A stretch of DNA of 64,000 bases from Prorocentrum cordatum (Eukaryota), in assembly GCA_963575745.1 (NCBI GenBank), contig CAUYUJ010000033.1, positions 1-64,000 of the forward strand, in the 5' to 3' direction. A program made the position numbers and the translations under genes. Positions 30,759 to 39,836 of the stretch are shown here, one piece after another (the first letter of the stretch is position 1; every line of letters begins with the position of its first letter). The notes beneath the pieces were generated by a model. It was not told the origin of the DNA. It saw nothing but the letters and a program-made list of their open reading frames with translations, and searched no databases.

Positions 30759-33700
30759 ATGGCGCTGGCTCGCTCAGACATCGTTGAGTTGCTTGGCGAT
30801 CTGCCTGCTGGCGCATTCGGCGCCGACAAAAATGCCATCGGGGCGCGCGCGCGCGTCTCCGTGCGTCTACCGCGGGCATGGGCCCACTCGCAGCGGCGCG
30901 CAAGGCCGATTGGGTCCTCTTCGTCGCAGCGGCCAACGCGGCGGAGGGGGACGCATCGCCAGCTCCCGAGCTTGGATTCCAACGTGGGTCTGTTAGTATA
31001 GAGAGGGTCATGACACAAACGTTGCAACACATATTCTGCGTATCTGCGCATCTGCGGTCTGGCAAATCGGGGCGGCATCATCGCGACGCCATGGGGCGTC
31101 GCGGACTCGAACCTTTGGCCTTGAAGCACGAAGCGCACGATTACCCAAATCATGAAGTTCTGCAACAAGTCACTGTGTTCTGGGGGCGCACGGACACGCA
31201 AAACACTGTTCAGCTAATCGTTAGCTGGCGCCCGCCTCGAACTCATGCCCCACCCCCCGCCTCTTCCAAATATCCTTTCGCTGTGGCCCCACCCTCCTCA
31301 TGCCCCTCCGAACGCCCCGGTCCTCATCGTGCCCTTCATCCACATTGCTCACCCCCCATGTGCCAATTCACGTCGTTCCTCGTCGTCTTCCTGCGCCGGA
31401 TTCGTTCCCCCATCGTCCACATGCCTGCCCTCCTCCCATCCTCTGCGCCCTAGTGCACATCATGCCCCCAACTTCTGCCTCCCCCACCTCCCTCGCCCTC
31501 GCGATGCTGACACCGATGATCCACATCCTCCTGGGCTCATTTCTTCCGCTCTCGTCCAGTCCCGTTCATCCTTGGCCCCTCGGCCACCCCTCCTATCGAA
31601 CCCCTTCCTTCCCACAGCCCACCATCTCCACCCCCCCCGCGCCTTTGCATGCCCAGACCGCGGCCCCCTCCTGGACCAGCCGGGAGACCCGCGGAAACTC
31701 CCGCCCAGAGACCACTCCAGCGAACGGAGCGCAACAAATGCACAGTTGGAGACACGAACTGTGTATTTCGACCGCGCACGACGCCCCCCTGGACCAGCCG
31801 GAAGAGAAACGCGAAAGTTCCCGCCCATTCAACACCACCCGCGAGGGACACACTCCAAATACACAGATGGGAACGAGATCTGTCTACACAGATCACACCA
31901 CGATCTGTGTAAACAGTCGGCCCACACACGAAAATACACAGTTGAAGACACAAACTGTGTACACAGATCACACCTTGATCTGTGTATTTCGAAAAGGTAA
32001 ACGCTCGCCACCTTGAGGGCGCCCCGACTTTGCCGGCCCAGAACCGAGGTTGACATGCCCAGCTGGGGGGGACTGCAAATACACACTTCCCCGGCCCAGG
32101 GCGCCCCGGAGAGAACCGCAAATACACGTTTCCCTGGCCCAGGGCGGCCGCGGTGTAACGCGGCGCCAAAGCGGCCCCCAACGGCCCGAAGACGCCCCAA
32201 AAGGCCTCGAAGGACCCCAAAGAATGCCGCGCGGCAGTCCGAAAACACGAGAGATGTCACATGTCATGGACCTCTTAACAGTCAAAGCTCCACGCGTCGC
32301 CATATAGACCACTGCTCTGGCAGGGGGGCGGACCTTGCCGCCGGCACCTATAATTTACATGTTAGCGATGCGACTGTGCTCGGCGGCCGTGCCGCCCGAA
32401 TTTTGGGTGCGCCCCGAACTCTCGCATTGGCAATCCCCTCTGTTTGGTTGCGCCGCTGTGCGCGGATACCGGAAAAGCATTTACCGCTGACGCGGGCACG
32501 CGGCACCAGGGACTTCACTTTTCGAACAAGGAGGGTGGACGAGGTAGGACGACGGACGGTGGAGCAAGGAGGCAAAGAGGAACGAGGAATAATAAGGGAG
32601 GTGGGAAGGGGCGCCCCCCCGCCCGAGCCGCGGACGCTTTCGACACCATCCAGGGGGGGGAAGAAAGGAAGGGGAACGGAGCAAGGGCGAGGACGACGAC
32701 GGGAAGCAAAGTGTCCCGGGTCCGCATATAGCCATATGTCTGCGATTCGGGTGCGCGCGCTTTCTTCGAGGCACTTCAAGCCCGACCCATGCTGAATTCA
32801 CTAATTCCTTAAAACTGTGTAAACACTGTGTCCTCTGTTCCCTCTCCTATACAACGGCCTCATAACAGAGGGGCAGTGGATTCCAATCCCGAGCTGGTGC
32901 TGTGCACCACGGTCGCGCGCCTGATGGCCGAAGCGATCGGGGCGGTCCGCCCGATTGATTACTCGGATGCGGCCATGCGCGATATGTTGACTGCGGCCCT
33001 GAAGCCAGGCGCGAAGCCGTTTGCGGGCGATTCTTCCGCGGAGTGGCGCGATTTCGCGATTAAGCCGTGCCACATCAATATGGCGCTGCGGACACAGTCG
33101 CGAGCGATGGAAGCCTTCGGGCGGAAGGCCCCCGCCCCGTTGGTGCGCGAGGACGCGGGCCGCCGCACGGCGCGCCGTCAGGAGGGTCAGCAATCGGCCC
33201 CGGCGGAGGCGGCCGCCAAGCCCGCGGAGGAGACGACGCGGATTGCGGCGGCAATGGAAGAAAACGTGAAGGCCAGCAAGGAATTGCTCGAAGAAAAGCG
33301 GGAGAAGCCGCTGGCGTTTGCCATGGAGGCGCGCCGCGTTTTCGCATGCGCGGGCGGCATTGGTCGGGGATACGCGCCTCGGCAGGACCGTGTGCGCGAG
33401 GTCTGGCTCGGCAAGTTCCCCCGTGAGGGATTGCCGACCGAGGAGTCGATGCGCAAATTCGCGGCCGCGGGCCGGACGGCCCAGTCCCATGGCCGCTCAT
33501 ACCTTGGGAGCGCCGAGGGCGAGAGCCTGCAGGCTCCCTGCTCGGCGGCACGCGCAATGACAAGCTTCCGTTTCGCCGATTGCTCCGCGCGCAGGACCAC
33601 TGCAAGCCCCAATGGGCGCGAATGCCGAAGCTGGACTCGGTACCAGCGGGGGCGGGCTCGTGGCGCGATCGCGCGTCGGCCGTCACCGCGGCGAACCGCG

Positions 33701-37581: not shown

Positions 37582-39836
37582 ATGCTTGCGTGCTTGTCAC
37601 ACGCGTCGCGGTGGACGCCCGAAAATGATTCGCATCCGGTAGGCGCGGAAGCTCTGCAGTGTCTGACATCCATGCTCGCAGCCGAAGGAGCGGCGTATCC
37701 CCCCCGACCTGTCCGGATTCACGGCGAAGGAGGCGAGGGAAGTGTTCCCGTGCCTCCGGGAGTGGTCAGAGTGCTTCACCGTGACGCTTATTACTCACGC
37801 GCGTAAGCTGACCCACGAAAAGGCAAAGCGGCCCCGGGAGGACGATGCAGCGGTATCGCTCTCCCAGGTCGAGCGCGCGCGCGCAACTCCGCCCCATCCG
37901 GCGGAGCTAGCAAGGCCGGCCGCCGCCCGCTGACCCGTGGGCGCGAAGGCGGCGGAAACGTTACTCGAGAAAATAAAAAAAAAAAAAAAAAAAAAAAAAA
38001 AAAAAAAAAAAAAAAAGAAAAAGAAAAAAAAAAAAAAAAATAAAAAAAAAAAAAAAAAAAAAAAAAAAAAAAAAAAAAAAAAAAATAAAAAAAAAAAAAA
38101 AAAAAAAAAAAAAAAAAAAAAAAAAAAAAAAAAAAAAAAAGAAAAAAAAAAAAAAAAATAAAAAAGCGGCAAGCGCCCGCGCCCGGCCACCGGGCTTGCG
38201 CGCGAAACGCCGGCCCGGCGGGGGTTCGACGCCTCAAGAAGCCCTCGCGTTGCTCTCAGCGGCAAGGCAGGCACGGCAGGCACCACCGCGCGGCGCCACC
38301 GTCCTCGTGCACCGCGCGCGGCGCGGAGGTACCAGCGCCGCCGATGCTGGCAGAGGCAATCCGCCAGCTGACGAAACTCCAGGCTCCGCCCGCGATATTC
38401 ATAAGCGAAGGCGGCATTCCGCGGGAGGTGCGCGCGAGGCAGGACATCGGCGTGCGGCGGGTGCCAGGAACGCCTCGTCGGCGCGCCGAGGAATTGCGGG
38501 TGTCAGGAGCAGGACTGGAGTGCATGCGCCGCATCCAGATGGCCGCGCTGTGGCGAGAATTCCACGCGTGGAAGCTCTCGGCATACCCGTATGCCTCGGC
38601 GGTGGAGTTGAACGGCCAGGCGTGCGATGCGGCAGGCGTCCCGCCCTGGCCGCCGTGCGCCATCGCGCGGGACATGAGGGTGGCGCTCTGTCGCCGCCCG
38701 GGGACCCTGTCGAACTATTTGCAGGGCATTCGCTCAGTCCTGCATCTGCTCCGCGCAGACACAGGGTCTTTGGCGGACACGCGGACCCTGGTATTCGGTG
38801 CCCGAAAGGTACGGCCGCCGCGCGCGTCGGCCGCGAGCCCATGATATCGACGGCAGGCGGAACCGCCTGGTGCGCAAAGATTTCGCGCGCGCGCCACGGC
38901 CGAAAACGTGCGCGCGATGTCGGATTGGCTGCGCGAGGCGCGGCCGCGCGCTCTTCGAACTAAGCGGCCTGCCGTGCGTTCCGGCCCGCGGGCCTGGCGT
39001 TTGGCAGATCGGACGCGGCGATATGGCCGACGCTTTCGTCATATGCTGGCAGTTATGCTTGCGCTTCGGCTCCGAAGTAGTGGGGCTGAATGCGCCTGGG
39101 CATAGCGCCGTCTCGCTCCACGTAGACGAAGGAAAGCACCAGGTGCAGGTGCAATTCCGCCAGCGGAAGGGGAGAGTGGCTCCCGACCCGGCGGGCCGAG
39201 CGCGCGCGCGCGGCGGGGCGCGCCCCGGGCTCCCCGCGCCGCGAGGTCTGGAGGGTATGCGTATGCCAGCTCCAGGGCAAACGATTGTGTGCGGTCTGCA
39301 TCATTCGGCATTCGCTCCGGCCCGGCGAGCAGCTCCTGCCGGGCGTCTCTTACGTGGACGGGCTGGCTTGCGTCAAGCTCGCCGCTGCCCACCTCGGGCT
39401 CCATAGGGCATTGGAGTGGGGGGCGCATTGCTTCAGGCGCGGCGGGGCCGACCAGGCATGGGCTCCCCTTGCCGTCCCCTGCCTACCCAGGGCCCGCGCG
39501 CAGTTCGTGTCTCTCGCACGCAGGCACTCCGCACCGGGGGGCCAGCAGCGCTGTTCTTCGAAGGGGGTTGGAGATCTGTGGCCGCGTTCGGGCCCTCCAT
39601 TCCGACAGGGGGCACGGCCGCGCTGCCTGGGTCGCGAGGGCGCGGCGCTTGGCGGCGCACAGGTACCCGGCCGCAAAGACGCGAGCCATGGTGCTGGCGG
39701 CAGAAGCCGAGATCGCGCACTCCGATTCCGACGAGGCGCCGCCCTGCAGGCATCGGGGTCGGGGCTCGCGGCGGCGCGTGGCGCGCAGGACGCGCCGATC
39801 GCCGCGGAAGCGGTGCAGGGGCCGCCCAGGCCGTGA
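37582..39836 (+). pseudogene. YR element ORF3: tyrosine recombinase, 9 predicted introns, disrupted by a poly(A) run
   Basis: Spliced product: TLSNYLQGIR (N-domain), LRFGSE (R), RQRKG (K), HCFRRG (HxxR), GGWRS (W), AAFGYP (catalytic Y at 39664-39666). Frameshift near 37700. Confidence 0.85.
37970..38165 (+). repeat. 196-nt imperfect poly(A) run inside the YR ORF
   Basis: Direct observation. Confidence 0.95.

Follow-up and report, generated by a model that had tools for sequence, protein, structure and literature searches.

Apparent spliceosomal introns, 27 in number, interrupt the three genes of a probable tyrosine-recombinase retrotransposon

The first 64,000 nt of contig CAUYUJ010000033.1 (Prorocentrum cordatum assembly GCA_963575745.1), which is the whole stretch of DNA analyzed here and is called the window below, contain at positions 29533-40463 a dead copy of a multi-copy tyrosine-recombinase retrotransposon. 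The element consists of a repeat A1, three open reading frames (ORF1, then ORF2 for reverse transcriptase [RT] and probably RNase H, then ORF3 for the putative recombinase), and repeats B1, A2, and B2, and its genes are interrupted by 27 short segments that resemble spliceosomal introns. The original prediction, made from the sequence of the window, had placed such an element at 33128-39788; this span proved too short, and ORF1 begins at ~30759, upstream of a nested insertion. The repeats and genes are as follows.

29533-29740 (+): terminal repeat A1, the left end of the element; matches A2 at 40037-40244 when aligned.
29741-30758 (+): 5′ untranslated region (UTR) between A1 and the start of ORF1, with internal tandem repeats; its translations are repetitive.
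30759-34473 (+): ORF1, gag-like by position only; starts with MALARSD at 30759 and stops with TGA at 34471; ~460 codons when spliced.
34496-37488 (+): ORF2, an N-terminal region, RT, and putative RNase H; 779 codons when spliced; colinear with the homologous proteins P0006, P0008, P0011, and P0138.
37582-39836 (+): ORF3, putative tyrosine recombinase; ~498 codons when spliced; broken in the window copy by a 1-nt insertion at 37699 and a poly(A) tract.
39905-40033 (+): repeat B1; matches B2.
40037-40244 (+): repeat A2; matches A1; the B1-A2 junction was also found in the metagenomic locus L001.
40335-40463 (+): repeat B2, the right end of the element; matches B1 when aligned.

Self-comparison of the window revealed that A1 and A2 are direct repeats with 98.1% identity over 208 nt and that B1 and B2 are direct repeats with 98.45% identity over 129 nt, which gives the Ngaro-type split arrangement A1...B1 A2 B2. 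Also as in Ngaro, the pol ORF is free of a methyltransferase: ORF2 stops ~40 codons past its last RNase H-like motif, and a Pfam search of 18 relatives found no methyltransferase family. The inverted terminal repeats and internal complementary region of DIRS1-type elements are absent, with all self-matches of 31000-42000 being direct and the 25 longest inverted repeats in the window consisting of poly(A)/poly(T) only. Neither a GIY-YIG endonuclease nor a Penelope-type RT is present, and a putative recombinase ORF is found instead. By eye, no target-site duplication is evident for the element. Judged by its architecture, the element thus appears to be Ngaro-like rather than DIRS1-like.

The likely identity of the genes comes largely from relatives. 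When 17 single exons from the window were searched against Pfam, no family scored above threshold; however, 8 of the 18 relatives matched RVT_1 (best E-value, 1.5e-7), and the window exons are colinear with relatives at 44-52% identity, which supplies the RT domain expected of the order DIRS. An FVDD motif lies in the exon at 36228-36612. A profile of the RT relatives searched against the PDB recovered only the YVDD region of the Moloney murine leukemia virus and xenotropic murine leukemia virus-related virus RT, with a marginal E-value of ~0.2. In the ESM Atlas, the RT scored 0.95-0.98 to RVT_1-bearing clusters, the nearest of which are from Perkinsozoa, and one RT relative (P0045) is a Prorocentrum cordatum protein. 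Five RNase H-type matches were obtained among the 18 relatives (RT_RNaseH, 2; RVT_3, 2; DNA_pol_viral_C, 1), and the window exon at 37228-37485 matched DNA_pol_viral_C with an E-value of 0.037, below the cut-off. For the recombinase, neither the exons nor the relatives P0143 and P0140 had a sequence match in Pfam or the PDB (P0143 gave 0 PDB hits at E-values up to 10); in the ESM Atlas, the clusters closest to P0143 are those of PF00589 (score, 0.96; structural TM, 0.55-0.65), a lead only. Spliced ORF3 contains the motifs LRFGSE, HCFRRG, GGWRS, and FGY (read by eye), which we take to carry the R..K..HxxR..[H/W]..Y catalytic residues. ORF1 had no Pfam match, an Rfam scan of the window gave 0 matches, and 76 pattern matches among viral contigs included 0 relatives.

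We next consider the interruptions themselves. The 27 segments range from 48 to 81 nt in length with a GC content of 0.68-0.95, and on recheck, the coordinates, lengths, and donors given in the original prediction were all reproduced. Specifically, the donor dinucleotide is GC in 20, GT in 5, and GA in 2 segments (25/27 GY-AG and 2/27 GA-AG), the acceptor is AG in 27/27, a G follows the acceptor in 26/27, and exonic AG precedes the donor in 24/27. Intron density is gene-like, about 5.2 per kb of coding sequence or about one per 174 nt. Phases 0, 1, and 2 are represented 23, 1, and 3 times, compared with an AG/G availability of 63, 14, and 17 (the slash marks the junction), which amounts to a mild phase-0 excess only (p 0.03). 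Since the DNA around the element is 60-75% GC, in which long frames and AGG are frequent, boundaries and frames alone were not taken as evidence. As predicted, in silico removal of the segments joins the frames, leaving open ORFs of 417 codons for ORF1, 697 codons, one TAA, and then 137 codons for ORF2, and ~400 codons for ORF3; the TAA is private to the window copy. The first ORF3 segment (37868-37948) was correctly assigned as an intron of that gene, whose start at 37582 precedes the poly(A) tract. Each segment is listed below with the loci (L), proteins (P), and sequencing runs (X) that bear on it.

33128-33181 (+): ORF1 intron 1, GC-AG, 54 nt, in frame; P0148 shifts frame after it and P0146 ends inside it, with conserved flanks.
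33329-33385 (+): ORF1 intron 2, GC-AG, 57 nt, in frame; P0145 shifts frame inside it; P0147 diverges inside it, with near-identical flanking exons.
33533-33594 (+): ORF1 intron 3, GC-AG, 62 nt; 63 nt and in frame in P0147; downstream exon conserved in the spliced frame.
33751-33803 (+): ORF1 intron 4, GT-AG, 53 nt; boundaries and frame only.
33921-33986 (+): ORF1 intron 5, GC-AG, 66 nt, in frame; boundaries and frame only; in run X6, a minor variant lacks 1 nt at 33966.
34107-34165 (+): ORF1 intron 6, GA-AG, 59 nt; boundaries and frame; 1-nt length difference at 34117 from all three runs.
34247-34302 (+): ORF1 intron 7, GC-AG, 56 nt; boundaries and frame only.
34661-34715 (+): ORF2 intron 1, GC-AG, 55 nt; 55 nt with 8 mismatches in L001; no homologue covers the junction.
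35103-35158 (+): ORF2 intron 2, GC-AG, 56 nt; in L001; homologues gap-free; same position in L004.
35252-35306 (+): ORF2 intron 3, GT-AG, 55 nt; in L001; homologues gap-free; L004 has one 7 residues upstream instead.
35535-35595 (+): ORF2 intron 4, GC-AG, 61 nt; 65 nt in L001; homologues gap-free; common to L004.
35716-35785 (+): ORF2 intron 5, GA-AG, 70 nt; GT-AG and 63 nt in L001; homologues gap-free apart from a nearby 1-residue indel; not in L004.
35854-35927 (+): ORF2 intron 6, GC-AG, 74 nt, phase 2; exactly absent from L001 and L002; present in P0002 and at the same position in L004.
36175-36227 (+): ORF2 intron 7, GC-AG, 53 nt; 51 nt in L001; common to L004; skipped by homologues.
36613-36665 (+): ORF2 intron 8, GC-AG, 53 nt, phase 1; 55 nt in L001; removal restores AVFGRG/ARVYLAPL as in P0006; not in L004.
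36859-36922 (+): ORF2 intron 9, GC-AG, 64 nt, phase 2; in L001; homologues gap-free; a 57-nt GT-AG segment at the same position and phase in L004.
37020-37074 (+): ORF2 intron 10, GC-AG, 55 nt; 54 nt in L001; homologues gap-free; a 75-nt GC-AG segment at the same position in L004.
37171-37227 (+): ORF2 intron 11, GC-AG, 57 nt, in frame; in L001; three homologues lack these 19 residues; same position in L004.
37868-37948 (+): ORF3 intron 1, GT-AG, 81 nt, in frame; 77 nt with 18 mismatches in L001; frame continuous only after removal.
38271-38328 (+): ORF3 intron 2, GC-AG, 58 nt; in L001; lacking from the contiguous ORF of the distant copy P0140.
38428-38490 (+): ORF3 intron 3, GT-AG, 63 nt, in frame; 65 nt in L001; P0140 lacks these 21 residues.
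38809-38856 (+): ORF3 intron 4, GT-AG, 48 nt, in frame; 49 nt in L001; P0140 is out of frame after it; P0143 has 23 unrelated residues.
38938-39007 (+): ORF3 intron 5, GC-AG, 70 nt; 54 nt in L001; absent from the contiguous P0143 ORF.
39191-39245 (+): ORF3 intron 6, GC-AG, 55 nt; in L001 with 13 mismatches; P0143 has 21 unrelated residues.
39456-39523 (+): ORF3 intron 7, between HCFRRGGADQ and ALRTGG, GC-AG, 68 nt; 58 nt with 18 mismatches in L001.
39592-39662 (+): ORF3 intron 8, just before the putative catalytic Tyr, GC-AG, 71 nt, phase 2; 70 nt in L001.
39736-39788 (+): ORF3 intron 9, GC-AG, 53 nt; 54 nt with 2 mismatches in L001.

Homologous proteins provide the first line of evidence that these segments are not part of the coding sequence. 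The largest RT exon (36228-36611) was used as a query against 1.84 billion representative proteins, which returned 116 hits, and the 21 hits of at least 500 residues were compared with the window by tblastn. In 14 of these 21 long homologues, the match ends at 36168-36174 and resumes at 36216-36231 in another frame with abutting query residues, i.e., segment 36175-36227 is skipped; the same occurs at 36613-36665 in 10 of the 21, and later segments are skipped by the best relatives. P0002, a close copy, reads 36175-36227 as 17 residues, and in the alignment the uninterrupted proteins P0006, P0008, and P0011 lack exactly these. When spliced ORF2 was aligned with P0006, P0008, P0011, and P0138 using MAFFT, 10 of the 11 junctions were gap-free within ±8 residues, with the first junction lying in the unconserved N-terminal part. 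Gaps in the homologues therefore coincide with the segments, and the homologues do not align through them, as the original prediction had anticipated. It had also held that active intronless relatives beside a single domesticated locus would speak against it; uninterrupted relatives do exist, among them P0008, whose 709-codon frame on locus L003 has no breaks, but these belong to other families, with 35-50% identity. The segments are thus insertions that the uninterrupted relatives lack; with G[C/T]...AG ends in 25 of 27 and removal restoring an ORF colinear with homologues, they match spliceosomal introns in these respects and would presumably be excised by the spliceosome. A neighbouring element in the window that resembles a long interspersed nuclear element (LINE) served as an internal control: its ORFs of 499 and 772 codons are uninterrupted, indicating that the interruptions are not general to retroelement genes or to the assembly.

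Other copies of the element provide a second line. A scan of metagenome contigs with a 6-row alignment yielded five loci, including L001-L004, of which L001 (5130 nt) is 86-88% identical to window positions 34658-40073, and L002 is 99.5% identical to L001 and, therefore, not independent. L001 keeps 19 of the 20 segments that it covers, all with G[C/T]...AG ends (19/19), while 12 of the 19 differ in length from their window counterparts by non-multiples of 3 (e.g., 61 versus 65, 70 versus 54, and 68 versus 58 nt). Spliced at the same cuts, L001 has at least 729 codons of ORF2, and its ORF3, read from upstream of MLACLSH, has 528; there are 0 stops in these 1257 codons. Differences between the window and L001 fall on codon positions 1, 2, and 3 in numbers of 48, 38, and 128 in ORF2 exons and 23, 17, and 71 in ORF3 exons (chi-square p = 1.5e-15 and 5e-11, respectively), compared with 57, 67, and 64 in the segments (p = 0.66). 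The ratio of nonsynonymous to synonymous substitution rates (dN/dS) is 0.20 for ORF2 and 0.14 for ORF3, with dS of 0.28-0.30; the coding sequence left after removal of the segments is thus, to judge from these patterns, under purifying selection. ORF2 and ORF3 exons have diverged by 9.9% and 9.4%, respectively, the non-coding spacer between ORF2 and ORF3 by 15.3%, and the segments by 17.0%, their alignment containing 55 gap columns. Apart from a 12-nt insertion in ORF2 and a 5+1-nt deletion in the first exon of ORF3, which is poorly conserved, the exons have no real indels. Despite this, 75 of 76 splice-site bases are unchanged, which has a probability of about 1e-5 at 17% divergence, and the sole change turns the GA donor at 35716 into GT in L001.

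Retention was also seen nearer to the window copy: contigs of three DNA runs compared over 32700-37940 keep all 19 segments located there (19/19) with no intron-sized joint, in assemblies that drop rare variants, so that rare intronless forms could go unseen. In ORF1, six variants 80-98% identical to the window (P0144-P0149) are read-through frames of other copies, and their frame changes and strongest divergence lie inside 33128, 33329, and 33533, with the flanking exons conserved in the spliced frame. These three ORF1 segments are thus backed by other copies, whereas those at 33751, 33921, 34107, and 34247 are defined by boundaries and frame. In ORF3, the more distant relative P0140 is contiguous over the 38271 and 38428 positions, and hence lacks both segments, and is out of frame after 38809. 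P0140 and P0143 are environmental sequences and may be either copies without the intron or partly spliced RNA, and either alternative favors introns. Altogether, the comparative tests, two of which (gaps in homologues and retention in other copies) the original prediction had proposed, support its view that ~27 introns of spliceosomal type interrupt the gag-like, RT/RNase H, and recombinase genes of a tyrosine-recombinase retrotransposon.

How old are the introns? L004 (2955 nt; GC, 0.69) represents a separate family with 52% protein identity to the spliced ORF2 of the window and is interrupted in the comparable part by 10 segments of about 46-82 nt. It shares 7 of 10 comparable positions (35103, 35535, 35854, 36175, 36859, 37020, and 37171), lacks introns at 35716, 36613, and 35252 (with one located 7 residues upstream of 35252), and has two more of its own. 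Its segments end mostly in G[C/T]...AG; for two of them (the counterpart of 35854 and one private to L004), no such ends could be placed, and this copy may be decayed or its exon ends may be off by a few bases. The seven shared positions imply that at least seven introns predate the split between the window element and L004 and, given 52% protein identity, that they have been passed on over a long period of copying. In a tree inferred by maximum likelihood (14 rows and 687 columns, with L001 omitted), the window element and L004 are sisters (support, 89/89), followed by the uninterrupted P0138 (90/88) and then by P0006, P0008, and P0011; the intron-rich elements thus seem to form a moderately supported clade nested among uninterrupted relatives. 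Losses also occur: segment 35854-35927 is missing exactly from L001 and L002, in which the flanking sequences are joined as they would be after splicing, and since it is present in P0002 and at the same position in L004, this absence is a loss. Only absences of single introns were observed, others being missing in the more distant copies P0140 and P0143.

We then examined the state and number of copies. The window copy shows about 57 fixed differences (about 1.1%) from the three runs; 7 of 40 listed differences lie inside segments, which make up 22% of the compared stretch, as expected under neutral decay. The TAA at 36960-36962 is private to the window copy, since all three runs have T at 36962, giving TAT, and L001 has a sense codon there; the 1-nt insertion at 37699 in ORF3 is likewise private with respect to the three runs. 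ORF1 is disrupted by the nested insertion and by a frame change near 30850, whereas its N-terminus is unbroken in the other copies P0145-P0149. Run X2 yielded 99 contigs, distributed over identity classes of ≥99, 95-99, and 90-95% as 28, 35, and 36, and run X8 contained full-length pieces together with a derivative in which 20 other nucleotides take the place of the sequence between 34542 and 37249, so that most of ORF2 is gone. Several contig ends run into unlike sequence, and ORF1 variants occur at 98, 93, 86, 82, and 80% identity. The family is, therefore, not single-copy, and truncated and internally deleted derivatives exist.

Taken together, the comparisons indicate that selected proteins can be made only after removal of the segments, yet that the segments have been inherited by new copies over the long term. 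Copying through processed RNA is expected to strip introns, and intron loss is a signature of retrocopies. The explanation we favor, and consider probable, is that spliced RNA serves as mRNA while the proteins act in trans on an unspliced sense RNA template, with pervasive retention supplying that RNA and copying of partly spliced RNA producing single losses. The element would be transcribed end to end; the spliced fraction would provide mRNA for the three proteins, which would act on intron-retaining RNA that is reverse-transcribed and then integrated by the recombinase. The host may resemble a GC-rich haptophyte of the Emiliania type, in which GC donors form the majority; the donors of the element (20/5/2) do not differ significantly (p 0.08-0.10) from the GC 135, GT 95, and GA 11 reported among 241 curated junctions in the 65% GC genome of Emiliania huxleyi (PMC4028052). 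In pelagophytes, GC-AG is reported for only 14-17% of introns (bioRxiv 10.1101/2024.10.30.620910). Intron retention as pervasive as in E. huxleyi, where 478 of 535 inspected introns are reported to have reads throughout their length (PMC4028052), would provide RNA from which the introns have not been removed. Occasional copying of a partly spliced template would yield a copy lacking one intron exactly, as seen in L001 and L002. A candidate for what keeps fully spliced RNA from taking over is a cis signal in an intron, comparable to the retroviral packaging signal whose location inside an intron limits packaging to unspliced RNA; another is that copies without introns are poorly expressed or silenced.

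Several points weigh against this explanation or against the intronic nature of the segments. A scheme in which the proteins act in trans offers no obvious reason for sparing fully spliced RNA; intronless copies should then arise and spread, and only absences of single introns were seen. Moreover, L001, L002, P0140, and P0143 come from environmental assemblies, so that their missing introns could reflect partly spliced RNA rather than heritable loss. Among the 116 protein hits to the RT exon, none is a spliced product of high identity, and only read-through ORFs of unspliced copies were found; no sequencing run listed as matching the stretch is recorded as RNA, and X21, one of two runs guessed to be RNA, gave no matching contigs. 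The 27 segments have no polypyrimidine tract (C equals G upstream of the acceptor), a YTRAY branch motif occurs in only 2 of the 27, which lowers confidence slightly as the host's own consensus may differ, and a G at acceptor position −3, unusual for spliceosomal introns, occurs in 7 of the 27. The likeness of the host to E. huxleyi is inferred, and the statistics of that species may not be the host's own. A Pfam search of the 150 other window ORFs of at least 110 aa, which yielded one match above threshold, Exo_endo_phos, and a sub-threshold Collagen match, recognized no host gene.

One alternative, which we judge unlikely, is that an antisense transcript is the RT template, in which case the sense introns cannot be removed and survive each cycle, while sense transcripts are spliced and serve as mRNA only. 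The original prediction had named this option alongside an unspliced template and movement as DNA. The same orientation logic is used in engineered retrotransposition reporters. This would explain full long-term retention, as seen at the seven positions in common with L004, without any exclusion of spliced RNA; the exact loss of 35854-35927 in L001 and L002, however, is hard to accommodate and would need recombination with spliced sense cDNA. We regard as similarly improbable a movement at the DNA level, in which the recombinase excises a circle via the direct repeats and re-inserts it in a Crypton-like manner, so that introns would at no point risk being lost, with another or an occasional role for the RT. 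The A1/A2 and B1/B2 direct repeats would permit such circles, and DNA transposons commonly carry introns (e.g., Tc1-like elements of molluscs, as described in a preprint), but purifying selection on ORF2 is as strong as on the recombinase (dN/dS 0.20 versus 0.14), ORF2 is intact in L001, the B1-A2 junction is the layout reported (PMC3266345, PMC5890265) for elements whose ends are restored by reverse transcription, and the exact loss of an intron suggests that the element passes through RNA.

A domesticated, host-maintained gene cluster, with its introns and low dN/dS owed to comparison of orthologues in related species, is very unlikely. Conserved intron positions and purifying selection are typical of host genes, L001 and L004 stem from environmental DNA without a species assignment, and depth in run X8 is low (~6). 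Against this, the window copy lies ~1% from the three-run consensus and has nevertheless acquired a stop codon along with frameshifts, the nested insertion, and the poly(A) expansion; the element still has full terminal repeats (98% identity) and each of its three genes, and single runs contain several identity classes, a deletion derivative, and unlike flanks. A single domesticated locus, which the original prediction had named, together with active intronless relatives, as grounds for rejecting it, is thus at odds with the several diverged copies and the truncated, internally deleted derivatives. That the segments are not introns and the element is a decayed pseudo-element with AG/G...AG/G boundaries arising by chance is hardly credible: AGG is frequent in 70% GC DNA, 4 of 7 ORF1 segments are placed by boundaries and frame alone, and no canonical branch or polypyrimidine signal was seen, but chance cannot explain the 10 of 11 gap-free junctions, the 0 stops in 1257 L001 codons, the exon-only third-position bias, or the positions shared with L004.

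With regard to the origin of the introns, two candidates were tried and rejected. The segments are not copies of one repeat, as introners would be, since they share only 12-22 nt GC-rich low-complexity matches in the form of (GC)n runs, and tandem duplication is not supported, with 2 of 27 segments resembling the flanking exon at p ≤ 0.05 where ~1.4 are expected. Likewise, AG/G occurs at only 1 of 10 homologous positions in the uninterrupted L003, which gives no support for insertion into conserved AG/G protosplice sites. Reverse splicing into the element RNA followed by the element's own reverse transcription may be an attractive route of intron gain and is our candidate. We tentatively extend this to the idea, unlikely as it stands, that the clade is an intron trap, in which introns reverse-spliced into genomic RNA at AG/G would become heritable in one step, since the element's own enzymes turn that RNA into integrated DNA, and would be kept as camouflage against silencing of intronless DNA; such silencing is reported for HUSH in humans (PMC8770142). 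If this doubtful proposal held, introns would have accumulated far faster than in host genes, and the element would look like a host gene to surveillance; it would then document how introns are gained in nature through reverse splicing and how they can act as camouflage.

Compared with known systems, the family shares with Ngaro the A1 - coding - B1 A2 B2 layout, the order of gag-like, RT/RNase H, and recombinase genes, the absence of a methyltransferase, and, as judged by eye, the lack of a target-site duplication; it is likened to Ngaro by architecture alone and differs in its ~27 introns. In the portions of two papers on Ngaro and DIRS elements that were available (PMC3783388 and PMC3266345), the word intron occurs 0 times. 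The SymbioDIRS-type elements of dinoflagellates also have A - coding - B - A - B repeats and a divergent RT barely detected by Pfam, but are described as having intronless genes and a cytosine methyltransferase (PMC5890265), whereas the present family has introns and no methyltransferase. In an earlier survey (PMC3266345), "too many frameshifts or indels" led to the exclusion of a DIRS-like sequence from Emiliania, and unrecognized introns would give just that appearance; intron-dense elements may thus be routinely misread as degenerate. Full-text literature outside subscription journals and Repbase yielded no intron-dense tyrosine-recombinase retrotransposon.

To our knowledge, Penelope-like elements are the one well-known exception to intron stripping, with one or few introns kept. 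They are described as highly unusual in this respect, typically having one intron, often in the 5′ UTR, with most ORFs uninterrupted (PMC8557442). Keeping introns through retrotransposition is thus common to both, but Penelope-like elements belong to another RT clade with GIY-YIG and no recombinase, whereas the present element has 27 introns within coding sequence. Introner elements, reportedly described by Huff et al. in 2016 from Micromonas and Aureococcus, are said to be short lineage-specific introns gained in bulk in marine algae. The present segments are each flanked by the same AGG, which either a 3-nt duplication or a protosplice site would produce, but introners copy one another, whereas these segments do not and sit in a mobile element rather than in host genes. 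In retroviruses and long terminal repeat (LTR) elements with a regulated intron, unspliced RNA is the template and spliced RNA is mRNA; their unspliced RNA also encodes Gag-Pol, whereas that of the present element encodes none of the three proteins, so that all must act in trans. An LTR element with "unexpected introns" is reported from sugar beet (PMC2669250). The present family implies that a retroelement can propagate indefinitely while dependent on host splicing for all of its proteins, which raises the questions of how template RNA is kept apart from mRNA that differs only by splicing and of whether introns shield mobile DNA from silencing; the nesting of its clade among uninterrupted relatives makes intron gains datable.

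Two further features of the window copy are not part of the family or its coding sequence.

30973-32886 (no strand assigned): nested insertion, not part of the family; 1914 bp; 9-bp target duplication TCCCGAGCT at 30964-30972 and 32887-32895.
37973-38163 (+): poly(A) expansion in an ORF3 exon; 191 nt, frame-shifting; L001 has a short coding stretch there.

The nested insertion is private to the window copy, as contigs of the three runs carry the sequence of window positions 30934-30963 directly before 32887. Both of its ends read TGGATTCCAA, it has sub-terminal inverted stretches, and its 3′ end has a depth of 319 in run X2, against ~130 for the retrotransposon around it; the insertion resembles a non-autonomous DNA transposon. 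A second nearly pure A tract, at 46993-47243, lies in the LINE-like element, where it falls at the N-terminal end of the ORF for the endonuclease; the two tracts (~190-250 nt) are thus both within coding regions, and in the sense orientation, of unrelated retroelements; RT slippage on A runs may be the cause. At the 3′ end of the element (3′ UTR plus B1; 39834-40073), divergence between the window and L001 is only 5.8%, below that of the coding exons (9.4-9.9%), and the last intron (39736-39788) has 2 mismatches in 53 nt, against an average of 17% for the segments; the 3′ end and last intron may be a cis-acting replication region.

The LINE-like element is a non-LTR retrotransposon at 43569-47271 on the (−) strand. 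Exo_endo_phos scored 31.5 bits in 45775-47271 (above the cut-off) and RVT_1 scored 19.1 bits in 43569-45884 (below the cut-off); its two long ORFs, which are in different reading frames, share ~110 nt, and a further 663-codon frame lies upstream at 46845-48833. Elsewhere in the window, an 1811-codon open frame for which Pfam gave no match (51973-57405, [−] strand) runs through a ~144-bp repeat array (repeats at 55521-56661), and a tandem array at 18016-18916 comprises ~ten 83-bp units that are 61-77% alike. Microsatellite-like arrays with a trinucleotide period (CCT/GAG, CAT, and CAC types) are very abundant and often several hundred bases long, occurring at 19-450, 5433-5700, 7600-8080, 10830-12000, 19200-21060, 22830-22970, 24050-25950, 27770-27990, and 58000-58800.

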